Positions 762 through 54,882 of a DNA stretch of 64,000 nt are shown here, one piece after another. The notes beneath the pieces were generated by a model that was not told the DNA's origin, did not search any database, and was given only the letters and a program-made list of their open reading frames with translations. The stretch lies in sequence record MK977694.1; one strand, 5' to 3'. Each line of letters starts with the position of its first letter. The stretch's first letter is position 1. Origin of the DNA: Escherichia phage vB_EcoM-Sa45lw. The translations under genes and the position numbers were made by a program.

Positions 762-776
762 TCTTTGACGATTTAA

Positions 777-797
777 GGGACCTTCGGGTCCCTTTAG
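777..797 (+). terminator. Rho-independent terminator after gene 23
   Basis: Hairpin GGGACC-ttcg-GGTCCC followed by T-rich tract. Confidence 0.7.
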
Positions 798-809
798 TTG
801 TTTTTATGG

Positions 810-817
810 TATAAATA
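810..817 (+). promoter_or_regulatory. T4-type late promoter (TATAAATA) for gene 24
   Basis: Exact TATAAATA about 28 bp upstream of the gene 24 ATG. Confidence 0.7.
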
Positions 818-844
818 AATCATATAAACTGAAAGGAAAGCGCA

Positions 845-4881: not shown

Positions 4882-5562
4882 TTATTTTAATGTTACGAAA
4901 GAAGAATTGCGTGTTTCACGAATTAAAACTGATCCGTCGCGATTAATGTAATAAATTAAGCTAAACAAAGTTTGGTGTGCTGACGCGTGCTCAAAACTAG
5001 TTGGATGAGATTTCCAATCAGGAGTTTCAGCGATCCATTGATAAATCCACCAAGGAACCGTACAGAATCCTGGATTTTTCCCCAATAATTGAAGATTCGG
5101 GCTAAAGTTTTCCGGAAGAGTAAATACAGACGGCTTTTCATATTCAATAATCTCAGCTACAGCTTGTTCGAATTTTTCTTCAACAAAAGGAGTATCTTCA
5201 ATCAAAACATCAGTATTTTCAGGAATTTTATCCGTTTCTACCACTTCAATTTTAATATCAGATTTAACTGGAGAATCAATCAGAAGTGCTGCTTCTGGAT
5301 TAACTTCTTCATCGTCATATTTTAATCCCTCTGCAGCATCAGCAGCATCAATTAAGTCTTTAATAGATAACCCATCAGTCTCTGGCATAGGTTCACTAGC
5401 GAGCTTCTGGAGGGCTTCTTCAATATCAGCAACGATATTATCAAAAGATTTATTCTTTTTGACCTTTATACCAAACTGTTCAGCATATTCAGCTAATTTA
5501 GCTTTAGCTTCTTTATTATCATCAAGAGCCTTCAGCTCTGCAATATAATCTTTATCTATCAT
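4882..5562 (-). CDS. inh: Inh-like protein (inhibitor of prohead protease)
   Basis: 226 aa acidic protein at the T4 inh position between hoc and uvsW. Confidence 0.7.
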   Translation of the reverse strand: MIDKDYIAELKALDDNKEAKAKLAEYAEQFGIKVKKNKSFDNIVADIEEALQKLASEPMPETDGLSIKDLIDAADAAEGLKYDDEEVNPEAALLIDSPVKSDIKIEVVETDKIPENTDVLIEDTPFVEEKFEQAVAEIIEYEKPSVFTLPENFSPNLQLLGKNPGFCTVPWWIYQWIAETPDWKSHPTSFEHASAHQTLFSLIYYINRDGSVLIRETRNSSFVTLK

Positions 5563-5575
5563 AATATTTCCTCAG

Positions 5576-5583
5576 TATAAATA
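5576..5583 (+). promoter_or_regulatory. Late promoter (TATAAATA) for uvsW
   Basis: Exact TATAAATA about 30 bp upstream of the uvsW ATG. Confidence 0.65.
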
Positions 5584-5612
5584 TAGATATATTTATTACA
5601 TGGTATTTAGAC

Positions 5613-7124
5613 ATGACTGACATTAAAGTACATTTTTATGATTTTAGTCACGTGAGAATTGATTGTGAAGAAAGTACATTTCATGAACTCCGTGATTTCT
5701 TTAGCTTTGAAGCTGATGGGTATCGTTTTAATCCGAAATACAAATATGGCCACTGGGATGGACGAATCCGTCTTTTAGATTATAATCGTCTTCTTCCATT
5801 CGGCTTAGTCGGGCAAATTAAAAAGTTCTGTGATAACTTTGGCTATAAAGCCTGGATTGACCCACAAATTAACGAAAAAGAAGAATTATCAAGAAAAGAT
5901 TTTGATGAATGGCTTTCTAAATTAGAAATCTATTCAGGAAATAAAAGAATTGAACCACACTGGTATCAAAAAGATGCAGTGTTCGAAGGATTAGTTAATC
6001 GTCGTAGAATTCTTAATCTTCCAACATCCGCTGGTAAATCGTTAATTCAAGCTTTACTCGCTCGGTATTATTTGGAAAATTACGAAGGTAAAATTCTTAT
6101 CATTGTTCCAACAACTGCTCTAACAACTCAGATGGCTGATGACTTCGTTGACTATCGTTTATTCAGTCATGCAATGATAAAGAAAATTGGTGGCGGAGCA
6201 TCAAAAGATGATAAATATAAAAATGACGCACCAGTCGTTGTTGGTACATGGCAAACTGTAGTTAAACAACCGAAAGAATGGTTCTCACAGTTTGGAATGA
6301 TGATGAATGATGAATGCCATCTTGCTACAGGAAAAAGTATTTCATCTATCATATCAGGTTTAAATAACTGTATGTTTAAATTTGGTCTATCAGGTTCATT
6401 ACGTGATGGCAAAGCCAATATCATGCAGTATGTTGGAATGTTCGGTGAAATATTTAAGCCAGTAACGACTTCTAAATTAATGGAAGATGGACAAGTAACT
6501 GAGCTAAAAATTAATAGTATTTTTCTTCGCTATCCCGATGAGTTCACTACTAAATTAAAGGGAAAAACTTATCAAGAAGAAATAAAAATTATTACTGGGC
6601 TTAGTAAAAGAAATAAATGGATCGCTAAATTAGCTATTAAGCTTGCGCAAAAAGATGAAAACGCTTTTGTCATGTTTAAACATGTATCACATGGTAAAGC
6701 TATTTTCGATTTAATTAAAAATGAATACGATAAAGTTTATTACGTATCAGGGGAAGTTGATACCGAAACCCGCAATATAATGAAAACCTTAGCTGAAAAT
6801 GGTAAAGGAATAATTATAGTAGCTAGTTATGGTGTATTTTCTACTGGTATTTCAGTTAAAAATCTGCACCACGTTGTTTTAGCACACGGTGTTAAATCAA
6901 AAATCATTGTATTACAAACAATCGGTCGTGTATTACGTAAGCATGGTTCTAAGACAATAGCAACAGTCTGGGACCTCATAGATGATTGTGGTGTTAAGCC
7001 AAAATCTGCTAATACGAAAAAGAAATATGTTCATTTGAACTATCTTTTAAAACACGGCATTGATCGTATTCAGCGCTACGCAGATGAAAAATTTAATTAC
7101 GTAATGAAAACAGTTAATTTATAA
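5613..7124 (+). CDS. uvsW: UvsW DNA/RNA helicase
   Basis: 503 aa; Walker A LPTSAGKS, DECH box; N-terminus MTDIKVHFYDFSH matches T4 UvsW. Confidence 0.95.
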   Translation: MTDIKVHFYDFSHVRIDCEESTFHELRDFFSFEADGYRFNPKYKYGHWDGRIRLLDYNRLLPFGLVGQIKKFCDNFGYKAWIDPQINEKEELSRKDFDEWLSKLEIYSGNKRIEPHWYQKDAVFEGLVNRRRILNLPTSAGKSLIQALLARYYLENYEGKILIIVPTTALTTQMADDFVDYRLFSHAMIKKIGGGASKDDKYKNDAPVVVGTWQTVVKQPKEWFSQFGMMMNDECHLATGKSISSIISGLNNCMFKFGLSGSLRDGKANIMQYVGMFGEIFKPVTTSKLMEDGQVTELKINSIFLRYPDEFTTKLKGKTYQEEIKIITGLSKRNKWIAKLAIKLAQKDENAFVMFKHVSHGKAIFDLIKNEYDKVYYVSGEVDTETRNIMKTLAENGKGIIIVASYGVFSTGISVKNLHHVVLAHGVKSKIIVLQTIGRVLRKHGSKTIATVWDLIDDCGVKPKSANTKKKYVHLNYLLKHGIDRIQRYADEKFNYVMKTVNL

Positions 7125-16077: not shown

Positions 16078-16131
16078 TCCTCATGTTATGTCAGTAAGAC
16101 TACTATAACACAACACGAGGGACTTGTAAAC
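16078..16131 (-). repeat. 54 bp promoter-leader repeat, copy 1
   Basis: Identical to 31872-31925. Confidence 0.9.
16102..16131 (-). promoter_or_regulatory. Early promoter (GTTTACA, 17 bp, TATAGT) upstream of alt.-3
   Basis: sigma70-like hexamers with TG-extended -10; part of a 54 bp block repeated at 31872-31925. Confidence 0.6.
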
Positions 16132-18188
16132 TACATTTTGAACTTTTTAGACATTCCGTTAATGTTAACCAAAGAAGCTAAGATTTGAGAAACTTCGTTT
16201 TCCTCTTCTTTTGATTCTTCTACAAGGAATTGATTAAATCCAGCCATTGGACGAACTTCACCAGTTTCCATTAGATGGTCGCCATCATATACTGATTCTT
16301 CTAATTGTTCAGAAGGAGGAACGATTGTACCTTCGATTAGATACTTGTTATAAGCAGTTTCTTTCATAAAGTAAGTACTTACTTTATTAATCTTCAGTAA
16401 AATTCCACGTGGTAGAATAACTTCAGCTTCTGATGGAAATCCTGATAAATGACCCGGAACGATAACTTTAACTCGTTCAGCTCCTTTAATTACCATACCC
16501 ACGCTAGTTTCAGCATCTTCATTAGCATATGTAGAATGACTACCCATATGCATCAAATCTTCTGCATCAACGGAACCTTCTCCTTCACCAGAAAATACTG
16601 CTCCGGAATCATCTAAGGCCATATAATTTTTACCATACTCACCAAAGATATTTGGTTTAAGTGATGTAGATACGAAGTTCTTGAAATAGAACATTTTATT
16701 TTCAATGTTATGACGCAAAGTTTTAAAAGTAACTTCTTGTCCACGGTAAAGTGTAGTTCCTGGAGGAAGAACTGAACCTTTAGCAAACGCAGAATCCATA
16801 GTCTCGATGTGCTTAATAGCGCGCTCCATGTATTCTTCACGTGTAGAATCAGGTTTACCTAAAAGGAATGAGTTCATTTCAACATACGAATCTGCACAAT
16901 AATCTTCAATTACATCAGATTCAGCCTGAGTCAATCCTTTTGGAGTTACTTCAGTGCTTGCATATTCATACGCCTGAGCAGCGGATTCATCAATTAATTT
17001 ATAAATGCCATTCATGACAAATTGAATAATAGCTGTCTTTTCATCTGGCGTAGCTTTAGAACCTTTAACTAAATCATTGACAATTTTCTTAATAACATCA
17101 AAGCTATTAGAAATATTAATGTCAGCAAGATCGCTTAAAATTTTATCAGTTTTATAATCAAAGAATTCTTTATTCTTTAAATATTCTTGAGAACCTTGAT
17201 ATGTTATATCGCTCTGCAGCTTGATAGATGGATCACGTAAACGTGCATGGGCTAATGCAATATGATTTCGGAAGCTTTCTAGTTCATAATCACTAGATTT
17301 AAAACGAGAAGCACTCCTCATACCACCGATAGCTCCTTTGCCGAAGTTTGAACCAATCTGAATAACGCCAGAGTTCATTGGTCCTTCTGCTTTATATACC
17401 GGAACTTTAGATTCAAACTCTTGATATTTCTTAGCAGCAAAGCTATCACCCTGAAGTGAAGCATCAACAGTAGAATATTGAGCTTGTGCTGCTAATCGAC
17501 GACTAATTTTAGTTTTCTGAATAACAGCTTGATCCGTACGCTTATCATTTTCTAAAGCAATAGAAGCAGCAACTGCGACAGCTTTAGGAACAGCATTACC
17601 TGTTTTAACGTCTACATAAACATCACCGACTTTCGATTCAACTTTTGTGAATAACTCAGTTGAAATAGGAGGTACACCTGGAATGTCTTCTAAATTGGCA
17701 TTTTTACGGTAAACCATAATATATGCATATTTCTTATCATAGTCCCAGATTTCCTTTAAAAGAACATATCGACCTGCTCCTTTAGTACGTACTAAACGGT
17801 CAGCAATAACTTGCATTTGACGAGCAGCGCCATTTGTTTTACTTTTTAGTACGCGGAATAGGCATGCATCAATTTTATACTGTTTCATTGTTTGAAGAGC
17901 AGTATCAAAAACCGCATTAATGACACCAATTGGATTTCCACCCAAGTTTTTAAGCTTAACTAACGATAATTTCTCATTAACACCTATCATTACGATATGC
18001 ATCATTTTGTCGCCTGGCTTAACGTTTTTATTCGTATCACCGCCAGAGGTGTATGTACAAAATCGAAATCCAGGAAGAACGCTTTCTTCACCGGCTTGAA
18101 TAGCAAAAATTTGAGGTATTTTATGCTTAGGATTTAAGTTAACAACCGGCGCCGAAGCGCCGTCAAATAATTCTGTAATAAGTTCCAT
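16131..18188 (-). CDS. Alt-like ADP-ribosyltransferase paralog (intact)
   Basis: 685 aa; N-terminus MELITELFD as in Alt; ART motifs YRGQ, FVSTSL, EVILPRG. Confidence 0.85.
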   Translation of the reverse strand: MELITELFDGASAPVVNLNPKHKIPQIFAIQAGEESVLPGFRFCTYTSGGDTNKNVKPGDKMMHIVMIGVNEKLSLVKLKNLGGNPIGVINAVFDTALQTMKQYKIDACLFRVLKSKTNGAARQMQVIADRLVRTKGAGRYVLLKEIWDYDKKYAYIMVYRKNANLEDIPGVPPISTELFTKVESKVGDVYVDVKTGNAVPKAVAVAASIALENDKRTDQAVIQKTKISRRLAAQAQYSTVDASLQGDSFAAKKYQEFESKVPVYKAEGPMNSGVIQIGSNFGKGAIGGMRSASRFKSSDYELESFRNHIALAHARLRDPSIKLQSDITYQGSQEYLKNKEFFDYKTDKILSDLADINISNSFDVIKKIVNDLVKGSKATPDEKTAIIQFVMNGIYKLIDESAAQAYEYASTEVTPKGLTQAESDVIEDYCADSYVEMNSFLLGKPDSTREEYMERAIKHIETMDSAFAKGSVLPPGTTLYRGQEVTFKTLRHNIENKMFYFKNFVSTSLKPNIFGEYGKNYMALDDSGAVFSGEGEGSVDAEDLMHMGSHSTYANEDAETSVGMVIKGAERVKVIVPGHLSGFPSEAEVILPRGILLKINKVSTYFMKETAYNKYLIEGTIVPPSEQLEESVYDGDHLMETGEVRPMAGFNQFLVEESKEEENEVSQILASLVNINGMSKKFKM

Positions 18189-18191
18189 GAT

Positions 18192-20285
18192 TTATCCTTG
18201 AACGAACTTGTAAGGCATGTTTGTAATATCTATGCAAGACGCAATAATTCCAAGAGATGATTCTACTTTCTGTTTAATATTTGATGAAACAAATGATGCA
18301 AAGTCAACTCTGTCTTCTATTTCAATATCACCTGTCATTGCAACCAATTCACCAGTTTCCATTAAATGGTCTCCATCATAGATTACCGATTCGGTGAGCT
18401 CTTCCGTGGTCATAACTTCAGCTTGAATGAGTTTTGTATTATTAGATGTTGTTCCGTCATTATTAGAAGCATCAGTTATTTTATTAACCTTGACCATCAA
18501 TCCGCGTGGTAGAATAACTTCAGCTTCTGTTGCTATTCCGAGACTTCCTGGATATACAACATTAACTTTATGAGCTCCATCAATTGCCCATCCTATTTGA
18601 ACTTTAACATATTCAGGATTTTCTTTATACGCTCTTATTTCGTTTGGATTAATAGTTATTCCTTCTTCATTTTTATCAACTGTTAATTCGTTACGAGCTT
18701 CTGGTTCTAAAAGACCAATACCAGCATGTGTGATTCCAAAACGTCCAAAAATGATAGGAGTTAAAGAAGTAGATACAAAATTTCTGAAGTAGAACACTTT
18801 ATTTTTAACTAACGCTTCATATATAGGAGCAGTCATACTTTGAGCACGATAAACTGTAATGCCTTCTGGTATACGGTCACCATTTTCAAAAGCTGAATCT
18901 AAGTTATTTATAGCAGATTCAATTTCTTTTTCACTCATTACATCGTATCGTTCTGGATTGTAACGACCTAAAAGAAGATTATTGATGTCAGTATATCCTG
19001 AACCGCAATATTCTCTAATGCCACGCTTTTGTGATGGAGTATATTTAGAACCATCGCGGGCAATAGTAATATCAATCATTGGACCAGCACCAATTCCAGA
19101 AAAACTGTAAATCATTCGTTTGAGGAATTTAGTTTTTGCTGCGTTCCAGGAATTTTTAGTTATTTCTTCCCAGACTTCATCTGGTTGTCCTTTACGATTT
19201 TTATTATGATTAGCAAGCCATTTATCTTTATAATCTTCAAAGAATTGATTTACAGCTGCTGCGTATTTCTCTAAACATTTTATTGAAGTAGTTGGTTCAT
19301 TTTTAATTGCATTAAAAATTACTTCTTTAATTTTTTCTGAAACTTCACCGACTTGACTCATTGGAAAGAATTTATAATCATAGTGAAGTTCATCTGCCGT
19401 TCCTTCAGCAATAATTTTTGCTGCCTTTGTTTTAGAAGCTAATGAATTAATTCCAATTTTCATTTCTTCTGCTTCGGGAATTAAAGGTGCAGTAGCTGGT
19501 TTATTAAAATTAGCTGCTGTAGATTCATACTTCTGGAATAATTCACTTTCAAATCTAGAAGATTCCAATGACTGACTTTGTGCAATTGCTCTACGGGAAA
19601 TTTTAACTTTAACGATTACGGCTTGGTCAGAACGTTTATCATTTTCTTGTGCAATAGATGCAGCAATTGCCTCATTTTTGGTTACTTGAGCTCCAGTATC
19701 TTTATTGATATAAACATCACCGACCTTCGATTCAACTTTAGTAAAAAGCTCGGTGCTAATTTCTGGAACTCCTGGAATGTCTTCTAGTGATACATTTTTA
19801 CGATGTATAAGAATATATGCATACTTTTTATCGTAATCCCAGAGTTCCTTAAGAAGGACGTATCTGCCACCTGAACGACTGCGGATGAGTCTATCAGCAA
19901 TAAGTTGAATTTGTCGAGCTTGACCGGCGGTTTTAGACTTAAGAATACGAAGCATGCAGGCATCAATTTTATATTGACGCATTGTTTGCATTGCAACAGT
20001 AAAAACTGAATTGATATAATTAATCGGGCTTGGACCAAGACCTTTTAATTTAGCAATTGAACCTTTAGCAGTTAATGTAAAAGGAACAATGTGCATCATT
20101 TTATCGCCCATCTTTAAATCACGATTAGTATCACCTCCAGATGTATAGGTACATAAACGAAAGCCTGGTTGTTCAATTGCATCATCAACATGAACTGAAA
20201 AAATTTGTGGTATTTTCTTCTTTGGATTTAAGTTTGTAATCGGAAGAGTAGTATCTTCGTCAAATAATTCTGTAATAAGTTCCAT
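18192..20285 (-). CDS. alt: Alt ADP-ribosyltransferase (capsid-packaged, modifies host RNA polymerase)
   Basis: 697 aa; MELITELFDEDTTLPITNL...; ART motifs YRAQ, FVSTSL, EVILPRG. Confidence 0.92.
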   Translation of the reverse strand: MELITELFDEDTTLPITNLNPKKKIPQIFSVHVDDAIEQPGFRLCTYTSGGDTNRDLKMGDKMMHIVPFTLTAKGSIAKLKGLGPSPINYINSVFTVAMQTMRQYKIDACMLRILKSKTAGQARQIQLIADRLIRSRSGGRYVLLKELWDYDKKYAYILIHRKNVSLEDIPGVPEISTELFTKVESKVGDVYINKDTGAQVTKNEAIAASIAQENDKRSDQAVIVKVKISRRAIAQSQSLESSRFESELFQKYESTAANFNKPATAPLIPEAEEMKIGINSLASKTKAAKIIAEGTADELHYDYKFFPMSQVGEVSEKIKEVIFNAIKNEPTTSIKCLEKYAAAVNQFFEDYKDKWLANHNKNRKGQPDEVWEEITKNSWNAAKTKFLKRMIYSFSGIGAGPMIDITIARDGSKYTPSQKRGIREYCGSGYTDINNLLLGRYNPERYDVMSEKEIESAINNLDSAFENGDRIPEGITVYRAQSMTAPIYEALVKNKVFYFRNFVSTSLTPIIFGRFGITHAGIGLLEPEARNELTVDKNEEGITINPNEIRAYKENPEYVKVQIGWAIDGAHKVNVVYPGSLGIATEAEVILPRGLMVKVNKITDASNNDGTTSNNTKLIQAEVMTTEELTESVIYDGDHLMETGELVAMTGDIEIEDRVDFASFVSSNIKQKVESSLGIIASCIDITNMPYKFVQG

Positions 20286-27811: not shown

Positions 27812-28044
27812 AGTACGCCATACACCCTTTGTGCTTCAACTAATCCATCAAAATCCAATTTGAGATGTGTTATTTGGTCACCATCACCTGGATTCACAAT
27901 TACTAATACTGAACGAGGAGTTTCTGTAATAACACGAACCGATGTTTCTGGAAATCGTTCAGAAACCTTATTTACCAATTCTTGAGCAAATAGTTTAACT
28001 TTTTCTTGGAATTCTTTAACAGTAATTGGTTTTTCGCTTAGCAT
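27808..28044 (-). CDS. Hypothetical protein
   Basis: 78 aa ORF. Confidence 0.5.
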   Translation of the reverse strand: MLSEKPITVKEFQEKVKLFAQELVNKVSERFPETSVRVITETPRSVLVIVNPGDGDQITHLKLDFDGLVEAQRVYGVL

Positions 28045-28565
28045 GTTGATCCTAGCTCCTTACTTTCAACGTTTTTAACTAATTTGACAGAAACTAATTC
28101 AGCATCTTGGGTAATCATTACCGGGCCTTCTTCATACTCTTCAAGATATTCTAGAGCTTTGTTTTTAGCTTCTTCCTTCGTATCAGTTTGAGCATAGATA
28201 TAGAACATACAACCAGTAATACCTACTACTTTCCACTTAATTTCTTTATCAGTTTTAATTTCAAATTTACTGACAGAATCATCTTTTTGAACTTCTTCGA
28301 AAAAAGAATATTCTAACATATAAGTAATTGAAAATAACGGGCTAACTTTATAGGATTCGCCCATTACATCAACAGCTTTATACCAACAGTCATCAATTTC
28401 GCGTTTAATGCTAATAACATTTTTCGCAGGATCTATTTTTACTTTAAATGAATTTTCCCCAATAAACTGGGCAATTCGTTTATTAGCCCCGCAAGTTTCA
28501 TTAAAAATATCTTTATACCCAGTTTTAAAGCGATAAACCTTATCTTCTTCAAACCATTCGCTCAT
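28038..28565 (-). CDS. Hypothetical protein
   Basis: 175 aa ORF; SD GAGGA; early promoter upstream. Confidence 0.55.
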   Translation of the reverse strand: MSEWFEEDKVYRFKTGYKDIFNETCGANKRIAQFIGENSFKVKIDPAKNVISIKREIDDCWYKAVDVMGESYKVSPLFSITYMLEYSFFEEVQKDDSVSKFEIKTDKEIKWKVVGITGCMFYIYAQTDTKEEAKNKALEYLEEYEEGPVMITQDAELVSVKLVKNVESKELGSTC

Positions 28566-29293: not shown

Positions 29294-30493
<1,200 letters not shown>

Positions 30494-30497
<4 letters not shown>

Positions 30498-31928: not shown

Positions 31929-33516
<1,588 letters not shown>

Positions 33517-33543
33517 AATAAAATGGGCCTTGCGGCCCACTCC

Positions 33544-34722
33544 TTAAAAGTATTTTTTAAAACTCATCATAACTTTATCATCAACATCATTATCAATCTG
33601 TGCAACAAGATAAGATGACAGTTCTACTTCTTGCGGCGCGGATTGAACATTATCAGAATTAAGGTATTCACGAATCCAAGGATATGGATGTTTAACCGGA
33701 GCATCGGTAATCGGGCATGGAAGACCACACTGTTTCATACGAGATACAGTTAAGTAATCAATAAAGCTCCACATGCTATTTGTATTTAATCCAGGAACAT
33801 CGCCATCTTTAAATAAATGAACTGCCCAATCTTTTTCTTGGCGGTTAACTTCCATGAAAATATCAACTGCTTCTTGTTCACACTCTTTGGCAATTTTAAC
33901 CCATTCATCACCATCAGTGCCAAGTTGAAGTTGACGAATAATATATTGGGTGCCTTTAAGGTGAAGCTGCTCATCACGTGCAATGAACTTCATAATCTTG
34001 GCATTACCTTCCATGATTTCCATGTTCTTATGGAAGTTAAAGGTACATGCGAAAGATACATAAAAACGAATAGCTTCCAATGCGTTGATTACATGCAGAC
34101 AAAGGTAAAGAGAACGCATTAGTTCGTATTTGCATTCTTCTACATGCATAAGGCTATTTGAATATGCGTCCAAATCATATTCATTCTCTGAAAAACACCT
34201 AAAAATTTCTTTTGCGTTTTCCCATTCACGAGTTTTCTCAATAACATCATCATAATAACGACCAATAGATTCAGCACGTTTCATGATAGCTTTATCTAAT
34301 ACAATCTCATCAAATACCTTTGACGGATCAGTATAAAGATTTCGCATAATATGAGTGTATGAACGACTGTGAATAGTTTCACTAAAAGTCCATGTAGCAA
34401 CCCATGTATCAAGGCTTGGATCTGAAATTAATGACATAAGTACAGCAGACGGTGCACGACCCTGAATGCTATCTAAAAGTGATTGATACTTCAGGTTATT
34501 AGTAAAAATATCTTGCTGATACTGGGGAAGCTTGTTAAATTGTGCAGCATCCATCATCAAGTTTACTTCTTCAGGACGCCAGAAAAATGACAATTGCTTT
34601 TCGGTTAAATCTTCAAAAACTTTATGACGTTGAATATCATAACGCGCAATACCAAGACCTGAACCGAAGAACATAGGTTCTTTTAAAACATCAACTGGAT
34701 TTGTATTAAAAACTGTGCTCAT
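33544..34722 (-). CDS. nrdB: Ribonucleotide reductase small subunit, uninterrupted
   Basis: Continuous 392 aa ORF; no intron. Confidence 0.95.
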   Translation of the reverse strand: MSTVFNTNPVDVLKEPMFFGSGLGIARYDIQRHKVFEDLTEKQLSFFWRPEEVNLMMDAAQFNKLPQYQQDIFTNNLKYQSLLDSIQGRAPSAVLMSLISDPSLDTWVATWTFSETIHSRSYTHIMRNLYTDPSKVFDEIVLDKAIMKRAESIGRYYDDVIEKTREWENAKEIFRCFSENEYDLDAYSNSLMHVEECKYELMRSLYLCLHVINALEAIRFYVSFACTFNFHKNMEIMEGNAKIMKFIARDEQLHLKGTQYIIRQLQLGTDGDEWVKIAKECEQEAVDIFMEVNRQEKDWAVHLFKDGDVPGLNTNSMWSFIDYLTVSRMKQCGLPCPITDAPVKHPYPWIREYLNSDNVQSAPQEVELSSYLVAQIDNDVDDKVMMSFKKYF

Positions 34723-34773
34723 AAATTTTCCGCTTAGTTAATAGATAGTGACTCGTCCGTGAGTCAAATTATA

Positions 34774-37592: not shown

Positions 37593-38453
37593 TTACACCG
37601 CCATCTTTCCTTTAATAGGAGGATGTGATTCATAGTTGTTAAGAACAAAATTATGAGGCTTTGCAAATTGACTCAACCAAAATACCTGCGATTCTGTGTC
37701 CCATTCATCAAATTCATCTGGAAATTTTAATTGTAATTCGCATAAATCCATAGGTTCACGACATAAAATTTCTTTACATTGTTCTACGTGATTCATATAG
37801 ATATGAGTATTACCACCAGAAAATATCAAATCTCCCGGAATAAGATTACACATCTTAGCTACAATATGAACTAACGTAGCATATGATGCAATATTAAATG
37901 GAAGACCGAGGAAAACATCTACCGAACGTTGATACCACTGAAGGTCAAGGTATCCATTACGCACATTAAACTGATAGAACATATGACAAGGCGGTAATGC
38001 CATATATTTAAGTTCAGCTGGATTCCACGCAGAAACAATTTGACGCCTATCATTTGGCAGTTTTTTAATACGATCAATAACTTCTATAATTTGATCTACA
38101 CCGCCAAAATCACGCCACTGTTTTCCATAAATTGGACCAAGTTCACCGCTATGGTATCCTAAATCTTTTGCTTGATTTTCGTAATTTTCATCCCAGACTG
38201 TTTTGCCTTGAATTAATGAATCATGTTGAATTAATCGCAAATCATTGACATTTGTGCTTCCTGATAAAAACCATATTAGCTCAGCAATGCATGCATTCCA
38301 GGCGAGCTTTTTAGTTGTTACTGCAGGAAAACCTTTGGTTAAATCCCAACGCAATTTAGTACCGAACAAAGCAATTGTTCCTGTACCCGTTCGGTCATCG
38401 GTTTCATAGCCATTTTCAAAAATGTCTTTAATTAAATCTTGGTATTGTTTCAT
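37593..38453 (-). CDS. td: Thymidylate synthase, uninterrupted
   Basis: Continuous 286 aa ORF with active-site LPPCH; no intron. Confidence 0.97.
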
Positions 38454-38498: not shown

Positions 38499-38846
38499 TC
38501 AATACGGTTTAGCATCAAATTTTCTCTCAATTTCAGGCGTGAAATATAATTCTTTACCGCGTTTGGAAAAGCGACCAATAATATGATAATTATTCTCATC
38601 AAACGTGATATTACCAATATCCATAGCTTTCAACCAAATATCGATATTTCTATCCAGCTTTATGTCAAAATTCCAATACGGAGAACTATTACCGAAAATA
38701 CTACAAGCGGATTCAGTGAAACAACTGCTATAAATCTTGTCTTTAGGAACTACTAATTGATAGACACCTTTAATAAACTGAGGACCCTGCCACTTTGGCT
38801 GTTTCTCATCTTTTTCTAATAGAATAGGGTAATAATTAAAATTCAT
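38499..38846 (-). CDS. Hypothetical protein inserted between frd and td
   Basis: 115 aa ORF MNFNYYPILLEKDEKQPKW...; no recognisable motif. Confidence 0.6.
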   Translation of the reverse strand: MNFNYYPILLEKDEKQPKWQGPQFIKGVYQLVVPKDKIYSSCFTESACSIFGNSSPYWNFDIKLDRNIDIWLKAMDIGNITFDENNYHIIGRFSKRGKELYFTPEIERKFDAKPY

Positions 38847-38865: not shown

Positions 38866-39824
<959 letters not shown>

Positions 39825-39877
39825 TTTTTAAAGCATTGCATAATAGAATTCATCATTCATAAACTCAAATACAAAAA

Positions 39878-40237
39878 TTATATTATCTCCCATCGAAAAG
39901 GGTCAGGAGCATATCCGATAGAATTAATCATTTTAACTAAAGTTACCATTCCTTTGTTAACTGCTTGTGCGATTTCATCAAAAACTTCATCGCTATCATC
40001 ATAAAGGTCATTAAAAAGTTCTAACACGTTCTTCTGAACTTTTAATTTACAGCCAACAAATTCGCCTACAGTAAATTCGTTTCCGCCAACTCCAGCGTAA
40101 AACGTAATTACACCAGTTAATGGTCTTTCACTAGAACATAGGTCGTGTGATAAATTAATATAAGCCGTCCCGGGTGCAGTTTTAAGTTGGCAACGAATAC
40201 TTACTCGAGCAATTCCAGCTACACGAATGTCAGACAT
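39878..40237 (-). CDS. Hypothetical protein (frd.2 position)
   Basis: 119 aa ORF. Confidence 0.55.
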   Translation of the reverse strand: MSDIRVAGIARVSIRCQLKTAPGTAYINLSHDLCSSERPLTGVITFYAGVGGNEFTVGEFVGCKLKVQKNVLELFNDLYDDSDEVFDEIAQAVNKGMVTLVKMINSIGYAPDPFRWEII

Positions 40238-40631: not shown

Positions 40632-40892
40632 TTATTTTTGAATTTTATCGAGCCACTTACCAAGCTTAATCATTTCTTTAGTAGCCTTTTCCATACTTCT
40701 GAACTTAACCAATAGAGGATAGGTATCGACACCCATAACTAAACTGGTTACAAGACTGTGTTCACCCACAAGCCATAATGAATACGTTTGAATATCGAGC
40801 CCGTAATTTCTGTCTTTATGGACCCGTACACCCATCACTTCAAATTTCTCACTAGCTTTTTCTACCGCATCCAGGAAATCATCTTTAGTCAT
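40632..40892 (-). CDS. Hypothetical protein
   Basis: 86 aa from ATG at 40892, one nt after the stop of the upstream ORF. Confidence 0.5.
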   Translation of the reverse strand: MTKDDFLDAVEKASEKFEVMGVRVHKDRNYGLDIQTYSLWLVGEHSLVTSLVMGVDTYPLLVKFRSMEKATKEMIKLGKWLDKIQK

Positions 40893-40893
40893 A

Positions 40894-41295
40894 TTAGGCC
40901 TTAAAAGTTTTTCGCAAAAGTTCAATGATTTCATCTACATTGTTTTCATCAACAATGCAGTGAATTTTTGTCACGTCAGAAACCTTGTCTTCGATTTCAT
41001 CTTCTTCAGAAGTCGGTTCTTTATATTCGCGGAAACAATAAAACTCTTCTTCACGAAGTTCAAAATAATCATCATCCATACCATCATCATTATAGATTTC
41101 ACCATTAGCACAAATGATTTCGGTTACATAATCAAAGCCATCTAAACTTAATATTGATTTAACTTCAAACCAACCACCATTTTCTTGAATGATGCCGACC
41201 ATACTAGCATTTAATGAACTAATATCAATGAAAGATTTAATATGACGTGGATTTAACTCGTATTTTTTTTCCAACTTCCACTTTGATTTCCTCAT
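40894..41295 (-). CDS. Hypothetical acidic protein
   Basis: 133 aa, net charge about -15, D/E-rich C-terminal half. Confidence 0.55.
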   Translation of the reverse strand: MRKSKWKLEKKYELNPRHIKSFIDISSLNASMVGIIQENGGWFEVKSILSLDGFDYVTEIICANGEIYNDDGMDDDYFELREEEFYCFREYKEPTSEEDEIEDKVSDVTKIHCIVDENNVDEIIELLRKTFKA

Positions 41296-41703: not shown

Positions 41704-42612
41704 TTAAAGGTCATTCAAAAGGTCATCCAGGTCCGTGTCATCAGCACTAGATGAACTGCCAGAGCTTGAGCTCATAAAATCATCTTCAGTTTTTGTATTG
41801 AAGTCATCAACATTGAATGCATCCAAATCATCAGCAACTTTATCAGCTTTCTTAGCAGCAGTTGCAGCGGCACCGCCCATCACAGCAGTTCCCATAACTT
41901 GACCGAATTTAGTATTCAGTTCTTCAAACGATTTGAATTTATCTTTAGAAGTCATTTCAGAAAGGTCAACCATTTGTTCGAACAGTTCTTTCTGGAAAGA
42001 TTCATCGTCAATGTTTGGAATCGCAGATTGATTCAGGAATTTAGATTCGTCGTAGTTACTAAAACCAGAAACTTGTTTAACTTTCAGTACAAAGTTAGCA
42101 CCTTCCCACGGACAAGTTACATCAACCGGAGTTTCACCCATTTCAACATCAACTGCAATCATTGCATTGATTTTATCCCAGATTTTCTTACCGAAACGAT
42201 ATTTAAATACTTTACCTTCGTTTTCTGGAGCAGCTGGATCTTTTACAACAAGAATGTTAGCCCAGTAAGAAGTTTTACGTTTAACAAGACCGTACTCTTT
42301 ATTGTCAGTGTTGTACAAATCATTTTTACTGATGTACTGACATACTGGGCAAGAATCGTAATCACCGTGGGTAGATGAACAGTTTTCAATATACCATTTA
42401 CCATTTTTCTTGAAACCGTGATTTACAAGAATTGCGAATGGTGCTTGTTCATCATTTTTAGACGGAAGAAAACGAATTACTGCTTGACCGTTACCCGCAT
42501 TGTCGAGTTTCAGTTTCCACTCGCCTTTATCTTCAGAAGAAAAACCACCTTTATTTCCAGCCAGTTTAGCCATTTGCGCAGCGAGTTCAGCAGTAGATTT
42601 ACGTTTAAACAT
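41704..42612 (-). CDS. 32: Single-stranded DNA-binding protein gp32
   Basis: 302 aa; zinc site [14 protein letters not shown]; acidic C-terminal tail. Confidence 0.97.
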
Positions 42613-42711
42613 TTTTATTTCCTTTTTAATTTAATTAACAGTTGGTGCTATGACGATGTATGACCTCATAGCTGGTCAGTGAGATAATTATAATCTATTT
42701 ATAATAAGCAA

Positions 42712-43365
42712 TTAATACTTGCAAGATTTCACAGTTTCAATAAAAACTTTTTTAGCTTCCTGTGAATCGATATTTAAAATTTTTCTATAAGCTTTTAACT
42801 TTATAGAATAATTGTTCCAAACTAAATTATCAGTTTGTTCATCATGTTTATCAATTATATTTAAAAACGAATCAAGCAAGATAAACGTCTCAAACGAAAT
42901 TATGTTCGATTGCAGAAGTTTAAAAATATAACTTGATTGAACTTTTGGATTATATTCAAAAATTTCTTTAAAAGCAGAAACTTCAACTTTTTTACTAAAA
43001 TAATAAATGTTGCGAATATCTTCTTCAAACTTAAATTTAATTTGCTTTAAGCGTCCGATATATTCACGATAAAACACAAGTGCATCAGCGTCAGAGATGT
43101 CGCCAATCCAAGCATCTTGGTTAGCAACCAAATTACTTATAAAGATTAAAGCAAGTTCCTTTAATTTATATTTTTCTGATAACTTCTGGAAAAAATACTT
43201 ATCCCTTCGCTTTTGATAAGCGGCATCAGACACCCGCATGCACCAATTATACTTAATAACATCATACTTTCCATTCATATGTTGTTTTATCATTAAGTAT
43301 AATTTATAAACTGATTTACCATCAATGTATCTTTCACCACCAGCAGGCATGCGGAGTTTAATCAT
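42712..43365 (-). CDS. 59: Helicase loader gp59
   Basis: 217 aa, T4 gp59 length and position. Confidence 0.9.
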   Translation of the reverse strand: MIKLRMPAGGERYIDGKSVYKLYLMIKQHMNGKYDVIKYNWCMRVSDAAYQKRRDKYFFQKLSEKYKLKELALIFISNLVANQDAWIGDISDADALVFYREYIGRLKQIKFKFEEDIRNIYYFSKKVEVSAFKEIFEYNPKVQSSYIFKLLQSNIISFETFILLDSFLNIIDKHDEQTDNLVWNNYSIKLKAYRKILNIDSQEAKKVFIETVKSCKY

Positions 43366-50698: not shown

Positions 50699-53600
50699 AT
50701 GGCTACTTTAAAACAAATACAATTTAAAAGAAGCAAAACGGCAGGTCAACGTCCAGCTGCTTCAGTATTAGCCGAAGGTGAATTGGCTATAAACTTAAAA
50801 GACCGTTTACTTTTTACTAAAGATGACCAGGGAAATATTATTGATTTAGGTTTTGCTAAAGGCGGTAGTATTGACGGGAATGTTATTCATAAAGGCAATT
50901 ATAACCAAACTGGCGATTATACTTTAAACGGTACATTCACCCAGACTGGTAATTTTAATTTAACTGGTATTGCTCGAGTAACTCGTGATATTATTGCTGC
51001 TGGGCAGATTATGACTGAAGGCGGAGAACTTATTACAAAAAGTTCAGGTACATCACATGTTCGTTTTCATGATTCAGCTGACCGTGAACGTGGAATCATT
51101 TTTTCTCCTGCTAATGATGGATTAACTACACAAGTAATTAACATCAGAGTTCAAGATTACAAAGCTGGTTCAGAAAGCACTTTCGCTTTTAATGGAAATG
51201 GTTTGTTTTCTTCACCAGAAGTTTTTGGGTGGAAATCTGTATCAACTCCGGTAATTTATACCAATAAAGTTATCACCAATAAAAAAGTTAAAGATGATTA
51301 TGACATCTATTCGATGGCAGATAATGTTCCATTATCTGAAAGCACTACTGCTATTAATCATCTTCGTGTTATGCGTAATGCAGTTGGTTCTGGTATTTTC
51401 CATGAAGTTAAAGATAATGATGGAATAACATGGTATAGTGGAGATGGATTAGACGCTTATCTTTGGTCATTTACTTGGAGCGGCGGAATTAAATCAAGTC
51501 ACTCAATTTCCATCGGTTTAACACCCGGACCTAAGGATTACTCAATATTAGGACCGTCTAGTATCGCTTTAGGAGATAATGATACTGGATTTAAATGGCA
51601 TCAAGACGGATATTATTTCAGTGTTAATAATGGCACAAAAACGTTTTTATTTAGCCCTAGCGAAACAACTAGCCTAAGAAAATTTGTAGCTGGATATTCT
51701 ACTAATGGAACCGATTTAACTACTCCTCCGACTGAAAACTATGCTCTTGCTACTGTCGTGACATATCATGACAATAACGCGTTTGGAGATGGTCAGACTC
51801 TTTTGGGGTATTATCAAGGCGGTAGATATCACCATTACTTTCGCGGAAGAGGAACAACTAATATTAATACTGCTGGAGGGTTATTAGTTACTCCTGGTAA
51901 TATTGATGTTATTGGCGGTTCTGTTAATATCGATGGTAGAAATAATGCTTCTACAGCTCTGTTTAAAGGTAACACAACAGGTAGTAGTTCTGTGGATAAC
52001 ATGACAATTTCTGTGTGGGGTAATACATTTACTAATCCTAGCGAAGGTAATCGCAAAAATGTCATGGAAATTTCCGATGCAACTAGCTGGATGAGCTATA
52101 TTCAAAGACTTACTACTGGTGAAGTAGAAATGAACGTTAACGGTTCATTTGAATCATCTGGTGTTACTGCTGGAAATAGAGGAGTTCACACAACAGGCGA
52201 AATTTCATCTGGAGCAGTGAATGCTCTTCGCATTTGGAATGCAGATTATGGAGCCATTTTTAGACGTTCAGAAGGTAGTCTTCATATTATTCCAACTGCT
52301 TACGGTGAAGGCAAAAATGGTGATATCGGTCCACTTCGTCCATTTAGTATTGCTTTGGATACTGGTAAGGTTGTTATTCCAGATTTAGAATCAAGTTATA
52401 ACACGTTTGCTGCAAATGGCTACATTAAATTTGCTGGTCACGGCGCGGGTGCAGGTGGTTATGATATTCAGTATTCACAAGCTGCTCCTATTTTCCAAGA
52501 AATCGATGATGCTGCTGTAAGCAAATATTATCCTATTGTTAAACAGAAGTTTTTAAACGGTAAAGCTGTCTGGTCTTTAGGTACTGAAATTAATTCAGGT
52601 ACATTTGTTTTACATCATCTAAAAGAAGATGGTTCACAAGGCCATACATCAAGATTTAATGCTGATGGTACAGTTAATTTCCCCGATAATGTTCAAGTCG
52701 GCGGCGGTGAAGCTACTATTGCTCGTAATGGTAATATCTTCTCTGATATTTGGAAAACATTTACTTCTGCCGGAGATACTACAAATATTCGCGATGCGAT
52801 AGCTACTCGTGTTGCCAAAGAAGGCGATACGATGACTGGCAAATTAATCGTTAGAAGAGGCTCTGACGCTATTAACATTGCTGCCGATGAAAATGATTCT
52901 TGCTATTTACTTGGAACATCGGGTGGAGCGAATTCATGGTACATCGGTAAAGGAGGAGCAGATGACACTGCTTCATTTTATAATTTCAAAACTACCGCAG
53001 GAATTACTCTTAATAGTGTTGGTGATATTGATTTTAACGTCAAAAATCAAGCTACTGCAGCTTCATTAAATTTTTATCGTTTATATTTAAATGGAAGACA
53101 ATGGACAGCTACACAAGGTCACGGCTATAATAATCAATGGCAAACAGAAGCCCCATTCTTCGTTGACTTTGGTGAATCTGTTCCGAAAGATAGTTATATG
53201 CCTATAATTAAAGGAAGAAGCCAAATCATTAACGAAGGATATGCCACAAAGGCAGATTTTGGTATTATTCGATTGGGTGGAAATGCTACTTGGGGAAATG
53301 CAGTAATTCGTGTTGGTTCTGCGGAAAGCGGAGATAGCAGCCATCCTAATGCAATATTTGTGTTTCAGGCTAATGGTGATTTTAAAGCTCCGGCTGGCCT
53401 TCGTGCTGGTGTTAACTTGGGCGTCGGCACAATTCCAGTATGGGGTGGAGCATCTATCGCCATCGGGGATGATGATACCGGTTTAGTTCATGGCGGCGAT
53501 GGTCGAATTAATATGTATGCTAACGCGCAGCATATAGCATCATGGGGCACGATGTATCAATCTCATCCAGGCCTTTGGGATTCAAATGGAGCTTTTTGGA

Positions 53601-54025
53601 CAGAAGTTGGCAAAGCAATTATTTCTCATGGCCATTTAGTTCAGGCGAATGACAGCTATTCAACGTATGTCCGCGATGTTTATGTCCGCTCTGATATTCG
53701 TGTTAAAAAGGACCTAGTTAAATTTGAAAATGCTTCTGAGAAGCTTTCAAAAATTAATGGTTACACTTATATGCAGAAGCGAGGCCTAGATGAAGAAGGT
53801 AATCAGAAATGGGAACCAAACGCTGGGTTAATTGCTCAAGAAGTTCAAGCTATTTTACCTGAATTGGTTGAAGGCGATCAGGATAGTGAAGCTTTACTTC
53901 GTTTGAACTATAACGGTGTAATTGGTTTAAATACAGCTGCAATCAATGAGCATACTGCAGAAATTGCAGAACTTAAGTCAGAGATTGAAGAGCTTAAAAA
54001 ATTAGTTAAATCATTGTTAAAATAA
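50699..54025 (+). CDS. 37: Long tail fiber distal subunit gp37 with C-terminal intramolecular chaperone domain
   Basis: 1108 aa; conserved N-terminus [36 protein letters not shown]; C-terminal ~110 aa resemble the S74-type self-cleaving chaperone module. Confidence 0.9.
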
Positions 54026-54030
54026 AATGA

Positions 54031-54044
54031 GGGGCTTCGGCCCC
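54031..54044 (+). other. GC hairpin between genes 37 and 38
   Basis: GGGGC-ttcg-GCCCC without strong T-run. Confidence 0.4.
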
Positions 54045-54056
54045 TTGGAGGTTTAT

Positions 54057-54851
54057 ATGGCAGTTGAAGGACCGTGGGTAGGATGGTCTGCGAGGGTACA
54101 AACTGGAGACCCTTGGATGGGTGGTGCCGCGCAGAGATTGAGAATGGGAATTCCGTTTTGGATGAGTAATATGATAGGTCGATCTGTTGAAGTAATTCAC
54201 ACCCTTGGAGCGGACCATAACTTTAATGGTCAATGGTTCCGAGATAGATGTTTTGAGGCAGGTAGTGCACCTATAGTGTTTAATATTACCGGAAATTTGG
54301 TATCATATTCTAGAGACGTTCCTTTATTCTTCATGTACGGAGATACACCTAATGAATATGTTCAGTTGAATATTGGTGGCGGCGTCCATATGTGGGGTAG
54401 AGGTGGACAAGGTGGATGGACTCATTCCGGCGGAGATGGTAATGGTCAACAAGGTGGTCATTGTATTCAAAATGACATCGGTGGACGATTAAGAATTAAT
54501 AACGGTGGAGTAATTTGTGGTGGAGGTGGAGGTGGAGGTGGTATCGCTTATCGTCCTCACTCTGGTGCAAATTGGCAAGATATTGGTGGTGGTGGAGGAA
54601 GACCATTTGGCCCAGGAGGAGGCGGAGGTTATTCCGGCGGCGCAGCTTCTTATGATGGCCCAGGAGGTGGTTATAATTATGGTAATGCTCACTCTGGCCA
54701 GGGTGGTGATGCTGGCGCAAATGGACAAAATGCCTGGTATGATGGCGGTAAAGTTCTAAAAGTTGGAGCTGGTGGCGCTGCCGGATATGCTGTTATAGGA
54801 TCAGCTCCAACATGGCAAAATGTTGGAGTAATATATGGTCCAAGGGTATAA
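54057..54851 (+). CDS. 38: T2-type gp38 receptor-binding adhesin
   Basis: 264 aa from [10 protein letters not shown] with GGAGG SD; conserved [22 protein letters not shown] block then glycine-rich motifs (GGGGGGGG, GGGGG). Confidence 0.85.
54519..54542 (+). repeat. (GGTGGA)4 hexanucleotide repeat inside gp38
   Basis: Read directly from sequence. Confidence 0.9.
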
Positions 54852-54882
54852 TTTTGAATAAATATCCTTAAAAGGAGGGTCT

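Follow-up and report, generated by a model that had tools for sequence, protein, structure and literature searches.

Among the T-even phages, the genes for the Seg, Mob and intron-encoded homing endonucleases are distributed patchily, as has been on record since the late 1980s, and T2 is the classical recipient without seg genes in T4 × T2 crosses and in marker exclusion. T4 is an outlier with 15 endonuclease genes, most of its relatives having few (PMC2988022). In Table 5 of Petrov et al. (2010), the endonuclease genes number 15 in T4, one in T2 and four in RB51, and none are listed for RB26 and RB69 (PMC2993671). The positions of segD, segE and segG given in Table 1 of Edgell, Gibb and Belfort (2010) agree with the annotation of the T4 genome (PMC2988022). 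In that annotation (AF158101), segD lies between genes 23 and 24 on the opposite strand (106561-107232), segE between inh and uvsW (112057-112674) and SegG between genes 32 and 59 (147909-148541). In T4, the promoters of gene 32 sit inside segG (PMC2988022). Borjac-Natour et al. (2004) described the gene 32 pseudoknot, the 5' part of which overlaps the 3' end of T4 segG, and binding of gp32 and translational repression at the pseudoknot operator have been demonstrated for T4 and RB69 (PMC535899).

We compared these loci with a stretch of 64,000 nucleotides from Escherichia phage vB_EcoM-Sa45lw (MK977694.1), here called the window, in which the original prediction, made from the letters and their reading frames, had noticed that the three T4 seg genes are absent. 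It seems, with a probability that we put at about 0.93, that the window belongs to a T2-like Tequatrovirus that never acquired the free-standing homing endonucleases of T4 at these sites, and that its spacers are uninvaded and of the ancestral type.

Identity of the window and the extent of the absence

The ORF layout and megablast comparison with phage genomes identify the window as a Tequatrovirus (T-even) segment that begins in the 3' part of gene 23 and extends to rIIB, and the nearest complete genomes in that comparison are Sf23, RB51, RB68 and AR1 at 97-98% identity. Positions 1-63989 follow T4 positions 105750-168903 (AF158101) in one collinear blastn path. The genes flanking segD, segE and segG in T4 are found in the window in the same order and with 93-97% identity over kilobases, enough homology for recombinational repair from a seg-carrying donor, but the seg ORFs between them are missing, as is expected of empty recipient sites. 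The spacers are delimited by the stop of gene 23 at 761 and the ATG of gene 24 at 845, by the ATG of inh at 5562 (minus strand) and that of uvsW at 5613, and by the ATG of gene 32 at 42612 and the stop of gene 59 at 42712-42714, both on the minus strand (Table 1). These ORF ends give the coordinates and lengths that the original prediction had stated, and its placement of the three genes in T4 was also right according to the T4 annotation and PMC2988022.

Global MAFFT alignments were uninformative over the large indels, and we therefore relied on blastn breakpoints and on direct comparison with the spacers of T2. Each seg gene is enclosed by a pair of breakpoints: window 772/833 is equivalent to T4 106521/107311 at the segD site, 5599/5619 to 112044/112680 at the segE site and 42675/42711 to 147918/148542 at the segG site. 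At the last of these, T4 has 623 bp, almost all of it segG, compared to 35 bp of T2-type spacer in the window. In T2 (AP018813) the three spacers have the same lengths as in the window (83, 50 and 99 bp), and 81 of 83, 50 of 50 and 99 of 99 positions, respectively, are identical. T2 also aligns with the window in single blocks over each of these junctions and over nrdB, nrdA, td and frd, and the two have in common intron-less td and nrdB, the lack of mobE and a 115-aa ORF between td and frd. The agreement of the spacers and the single-block alignment show that the organisation of the window is that of T2, although the flanking genes are 96-98% and not fully identical. Judged by its sequence, the window is thus a T2-type, endonuclease-poor Tequatrovirus genome.

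Table 1. Coordinates of the described features in the window; the last column names the supporting evidence or the corresponding T4 positions.
Feature	Position	Strand	Basis
23-24 spacer, 83 bp, T4 segD site empty	762..844	+	ORF ends, T4 breakpoints, T2 match
inh-uvsW spacer, 50 bp, T4 segE site empty	5563..5612	+	ORF ends, T4 breakpoints, T2 match
First ~140 nt of uvsW, seg-less (T2) type	5613..5752	+	three-way comparison, five-way alignment
denA (endonuclease II), sole GIY-YIG-type ORF in the window	33106..33540	-	Pfam PF01541, 27.1 against a cut-off of 22.6 bits
Intron-less nrdB exon junction, group I intron with defective I-TevIII missing	34046..34049	-	T4 138457/139058
nrdA-nrdB spacer, 51 bp, T4 nrdB.1 and mobE missing	34723..34773	-	window 34722/34778 = T4 139719/140420
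Intron-less td exon junction, group I intron with I-TevI missing	37904..37905	-	T4 143546/144564
gp32 codon 77, AAC (Asn)	42382..42384	-	association table, local alignment
59-32 spacer, 99 bp, T4 segG site empty	42613..42711	-	sequence, T4 breakpoints, T2 match
MotA-box-like TTGCTTA, candidate	42711-42705	-	our reading of the sequence
Late-promoter motif TATAAATA	42703-42696	-	motif scan
-10-like TATAAT, candidate	42692-42687	-	our reading of the sequence
Gene 32 autoregulatory H-type pseudoknot, T2/T6 sequence type, followed by the AU-rich operator	42678-42647	-	fold, covariation
AU-rich operator, UUAAA-repeat tract, followed by the Shine-Dalgarno sequence and the gene 32 ATG at 42612	42646-42623	-	

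The absence extends further than the list in the original prediction, which held the three seg genes and left out I-TevI with its td intron, I-TevIII with its nrdB intron, and the pair nrdB.1 and mobE. In the blastn comparison, T4 has six homing elements in this 64-kb region and the window has none of them. Accordingly, nrdB (33544-34722) is an uninterrupted ORF of 392 aa and td (37593-38453) one of 286 aa, in which the exons are joined exactly at 37904/37905.

The claim that denA is the only ORF of the GIY-YIG or HNH type in the window withstood both a similarity and a profile search. With all 15 T4 homing endonucleases, DenA and gp49 as tblastn queries at E up to 10, no homing endonuclease found anything in the window better than E = 0.02, and only DenA was matched (99.3% identity to T4 DenA, E = 1.6e-96). 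Profile HMMs built from the GIY-YIG domains of T4 Seg and I-Tev and from Mob and I-TevIII were run against the 885 six-frame stop-to-stop ORFs of at least 30 aa. The Seg GIY-YIG profile gave nothing significant among them, the best being denA itself at E = 0.2, and as a positive control it found a seg-like ORF from a distant contig (L021, see below) at E = 4.6e-30. The best value of the Mob/HNH profile, which had no independent positive control, was E = 0.029 and not significant. Neither approach detected a seg-derived or Mob-like remnant in the window, cryptic or otherwise, and the three spacers hold no ORF at all, with or without an N-terminal GIY-YIG domain. denA is not a homing endonuclease.

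Some other parts of the window also differ from T4. Between cd.2 and cd.3 lies a 175-aa ORF (28038-28565, minus strand, phrog_3710) that is missing from both T4 and T2, has no Pfam match and no match among PDB sequences, and occurs in about 300 phage records with 95-99% identity; at its locus phage PaulHMueller has an annotated putative homing endonuclease. A 100-aa ORF between pseT and pseT.1 (30195-30497, minus strand, phrog_2364) has weak sub-threshold Pfam matches, several of them coiled-coil. The 115-aa ORF that is also present in T2 (38499-38846, minus strand, phrog_1928) separates td from frd, genes that overlap in T4. In the interval between frd and gene 32, three ORFs on the minus strand are extra compared to T4, namely 39444-39824 (126 aa), 39878-40237 (119 aa, Pfam DUF7247) and 40632-40934 (100 aa). 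No nuclease domain was found with Pfam, PHROGs or NCBIfam in the window ORFs that are without a T4 counterpart. There are two full-length Alt-like ADP-ribosyltransferase paralogues on the minus strand (16131-18188 and 18192-20285, 685 and 697 aa), compared to one alt and the remnants alt.-1 and alt.-2 in T4. The distal tail-fibre region at 50865-54858, comprising the 3' part of gene 37 and a gene 38 of 274 aa, has no nucleotide similarity to T4, which presumably reflects the T2-type arrangement with a gp38 adhesin.

Signals in the spacers and the gene 32 operator

The spacers had been described as holding only promoter and terminator signals, and this was true in part. Promoter motifs occur in all three, but a terminator only in the 23-24 spacer, and the 59-32 spacer additionally holds a pseudoknot operator. 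In the 23-24 spacer, the terminator scan found a G+C-rich terminator-like hairpin with a T-rich tail after gene 23 (775-794), which by reading has compensatory differences compared to the T4 hairpin, and a late-promoter motif, TATAAATA, at 810-817 is followed by the Shine-Dalgarno sequence of gene 24. The same motif faces uvsW at 5576-5583 in the inh-uvsW spacer. The terminator scan found no terminator-like site in the inh-uvsW spacer and none in the 59-32 spacer. Over the whole window TATAAATA is not enriched (12 found, 9.4 ± 2.7 expected), so the promoter assignments rest on position and orientation and not on statistics.

Read on the minus strand, the 59-32 spacer runs TTGCTTA, TATAAATA, TATAAT, CUGACCAGCUAUGAGGUCAUACAUCGUCAUAGC, the UUAAA-repeat tract, AAGGAAA and the ATG of gene 32, and at the matching place phage fPS-65 has an annotated predicted middle promoter. 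The gene 32 promoter motifs, of the middle and the late type, thus lie within the spacer itself, in contrast to T4, where they are inside segG. The 35 bp at 42676-42710, which T4 is without, contain these motifs and the first bases of pseudoknot stem 1, and the blastn homology between the window and T4 ends inside that stem.

As in the T-even phages generally, where an H-type pseudoknot about 35-66 nt ahead of the start codon of gene 32 is followed by the AU-rich UUAAA tract and the Shine-Dalgarno sequence, the element of the window has stem 1 formed by UGACC/GGUCA and stem 2 by GCUAUGA/UCAUAGC, the latter being recovered by the minimum-free-energy fold. It is the T2/T6 variant and not the T4 variant, which differs from it in stem 1 and loop 2. 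In covariation counting with hand-specified pairs over eight diverged T4-like sequences, 95.8% of the cells pair, compared to 24-54% with slid partners, and 7 of the 12 pairs have compensatory changes on both sides, so that covariation supports both stems. There is no Rfam family for the element; in the whole window no family reached its gathering threshold, and the 59-32 spacer gave only chance-level matches. By analogy with the repression demonstrated in T4 and RB69, the spacer is the predicted route of translational self-repression by gp32 in this phage.

Other phages have a different content in the same region. A seg-like GIY-YIG ORF is found upstream of gene 32 (1622-2287) in the distant T4-like contig L021 (IMGVR_UViG_2974666281_000001), which indicates that the 59-32 region has been invaded independently in other lineages, and in VR7-type phages an endonuclease designated '32.1' is annotated there. 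In Shigella phage CT01 (OK018184; locus L099, 1317-2458) there is a 601-bp tandem duplication that takes in the 3' end of gene 59, the 99-bp spacer and ~290 nt at the start of gene 32. It ends on one side near the inferred SegG cut region, and it could be a scar of break repair or an assembly artefact.

Alleles at the inferred targets of the Seg endonucleases

Two different placements have been given for the SegE site, which was mapped in the hoc.1(inh)-uvsW spacer with phages RB30 and RB52 (PMC2330249) and is placed in uvsW by Table 1 of PMC2988022. In our comparison, the window and T2 do not differ in the inh-uvsW spacer or in uvsW up to nt 224. The segE carriers T4 and G28 differ from both at 38 of 139 nt at the start of uvsW, mostly synonymously, and past nucleotide ~139 they return abruptly to near identity with the window. 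From its sequence pattern, the diverged 5' block of the carriers looks like a flank that was imported with segE, and positions 5613-5752 are the presumed SegE target and co-conversion flank. At this inferred target region the window has the seg-less type of allele.

No target was known for SegD according to Edgell, Gibb and Belfort (2010; PMC2988022, Table 1). We found no fixed difference in the gene 23 and 24 flanks between segD-carrying (n=4) and segD-less (n=5) genomes, and these flanks gave no candidate SegD site. Sokolov in 2018 reportedly saw the same SegD site in phages with and without segD, and no homing, and the lack of a fixed difference is compatible with that result.

Gene 32 of T2 is a proven SegG substrate, and the sites of SegG cleavage and insertion are said to be 332 bp apart (reportedly Liu, 2003). 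In our sample of 10 segG-carrying and 10 segG-less genomes, the T4-type 5' half of the pseudoknot, which adjoins the insertion point, was found in 10/10 carriers and 0/10 of the others. The linkage to segG weakens over the initial 200 nt of gene 32 and has a second peak at nt 230-231, within the codon that directly precedes the zinc-finger Cys77 (T4 numbering) and that we call codon 77. This codon is ACA (Thr) in all ten carriers and AAC or AAT (Asn) in 8 of the 10 segG-less genomes (Fisher exact p = 7e-4), and it is the sole position in gene 32 that is fixed in the carriers yet different in eight of the ten segG-less genomes. Its distance to the segG insertion point is about 290-330 bp. T6 and the IMG/VR locus L008 have ACA without having segG. 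Because the IMG/VR collection is dereplicated, its scan with gp32 gave four close relatives only, and it was used for the diversity of the pseudoknot and for the HMM control and not for frequencies.

The association pattern suggests that codon 77 is probably a target or immunity position of SegG. The window has AAC at this codon where T2 has AAT, and its gene 32 differs from that of T2 at nt 225, 231 and 234, in a gene that is a mosaic of 22 T2-type and 17 T4-type states among 40 informative sites. The codon 77 allele is that typical of segG-less phages, which is suggestive of an intact SegG site in the window, yet the region is three nucleotides off the T2 sequence. A bolder and doubtful possibility, to which we would give about one chance in three, is that conflict with the homing endonuclease has driven the Thr/Asn dimorphism of gp32. 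ACA would then be the SegG-immune allele, obliged to travel with segG, and AAC/AAT, including that of the window, the cleavable one, and T6 and L008 would be scars in which homing converted the cut site and did not bring in the distant segG. In that case, the window would still be a live target of SegG, and an essential replication protein would owe a fixed amino-acid change to a selfish endonuclease. The sharp linkage of codon 77 to segG is a mildly new by-product and probably only rediscovers the mapped SegG site.

Origin and consequences of the empty sites

In the genus, empty seg sites outnumber occupied ones, which is ordinary and already known (PMC2988022; PMC2993671). Among the INPHARED records, the empty 23-24 spacer of the window type was found in 434 and full-length segD in 54; the uninterrupted inh-uvsW junction in 344 at ≥95% identity and segE in 169; and the window-type 59-32 spacer in 356 and full-length segG in 143. 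The empty sites thus make up ~71% (segG), ~68% (segE) and ~89% (segD) of the genus-level records, counts in which RefSeq and GenBank duplicates and laboratory variants of T4 are included. The 59-32 spacer is present at ≥99% identity in 299 records, and it was exactly 99 bp long in 10/10 segG-less genomes sampled. The query for the inh-uvsW junction was 86 bp long and also matched Mosigvirus records, which were separated by identity band: a further 104 records have the uninterrupted junction at 90-95% identity, and the one that was inspected, phage DCP548, is a Mosigvirus.

That the ancestor of this phage had segD, segE and segG and later lost each by a precise deletion, leaving the short spacers, is unlikely, and we give it only a few chances in a hundred. 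Homing endonuclease genes are expected to decay and vanish once they are fixed, according to the general cyclical model, and T4 itself carries decayed copies in the mobA pseudogene and the defective I-TevIII. However, deletion could not recreate spacer sequence that T4 is without, such as the functional 35 bp at 42676-42710. An ancestral empty form is the best reading because of this sequence, because the spacers match closely over hundreds of genomes and the inh-uvsW junction is shared even with another genus, because the seg carriers have derived and diverged flanks, of which the uvsW block looks imported with segE, and because the tblastn and profile searches found no decayed seg fragments in the window. 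The direction of change, never invaded as opposed to lost, is thus read from distribution and flank patterns and not from a rooted phylogeny.

It is less probable still that the window holds homing endonucleases of an unrecognised family, which would have to be sought in the ORFs at 28038-28565, 30195-30497, 38499-38846, 39444-40237 and 40632-40934. These are insertions of one ORF each compared to T4, the pattern that mobile ORFs typically leave, all of the window-only ORFs are of unknown function, and the annotation in PaulHMueller would point the same way for the first of them. Against this, searches of Pfam, PHROGs and NCBIfam gave no nuclease domain in any of them, nor did PDB sequences for the 175-aa ORF, this ORF with its roughly 300 records is a common accessory gene, and the three junctions hold none of the candidates. 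That the seg genes were collapsed out of the spacers by an assembly or sequencing artefact is hardly credible, since T2, T6, RB27, RB32 and AR1, which are independent genomes, have the same junctions base for base.

In T4, a seg cassette of about 620-670 bp occupies each of the spacers, and under the reading of a T2-like phage that was never invaded, the segG insertion at the 59-32 junction would have replaced the promoters together with the beginning of pseudoknot stem 1. If a cell were infected by this phage and a seg-carrying one together, the window genome would be the recipient, as follows from established Seg biology: cleavage would fall in gene 32 for SegG and close to the beginning of uvsW for SegE, and repair templated by the donor would convert the flanks and sometimes import the seg gene, which is marker exclusion.

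The finding carries little weight alone and its practical value is in annotation, where the 59-32 spacer should be entered as the promoter and translational-operator region of gene 32 and not as an empty gap. For the biology of the phage, it leads to the prediction that in co-infection with T4-type phages it would lose its markers in gene 32 and in the uvsW region.
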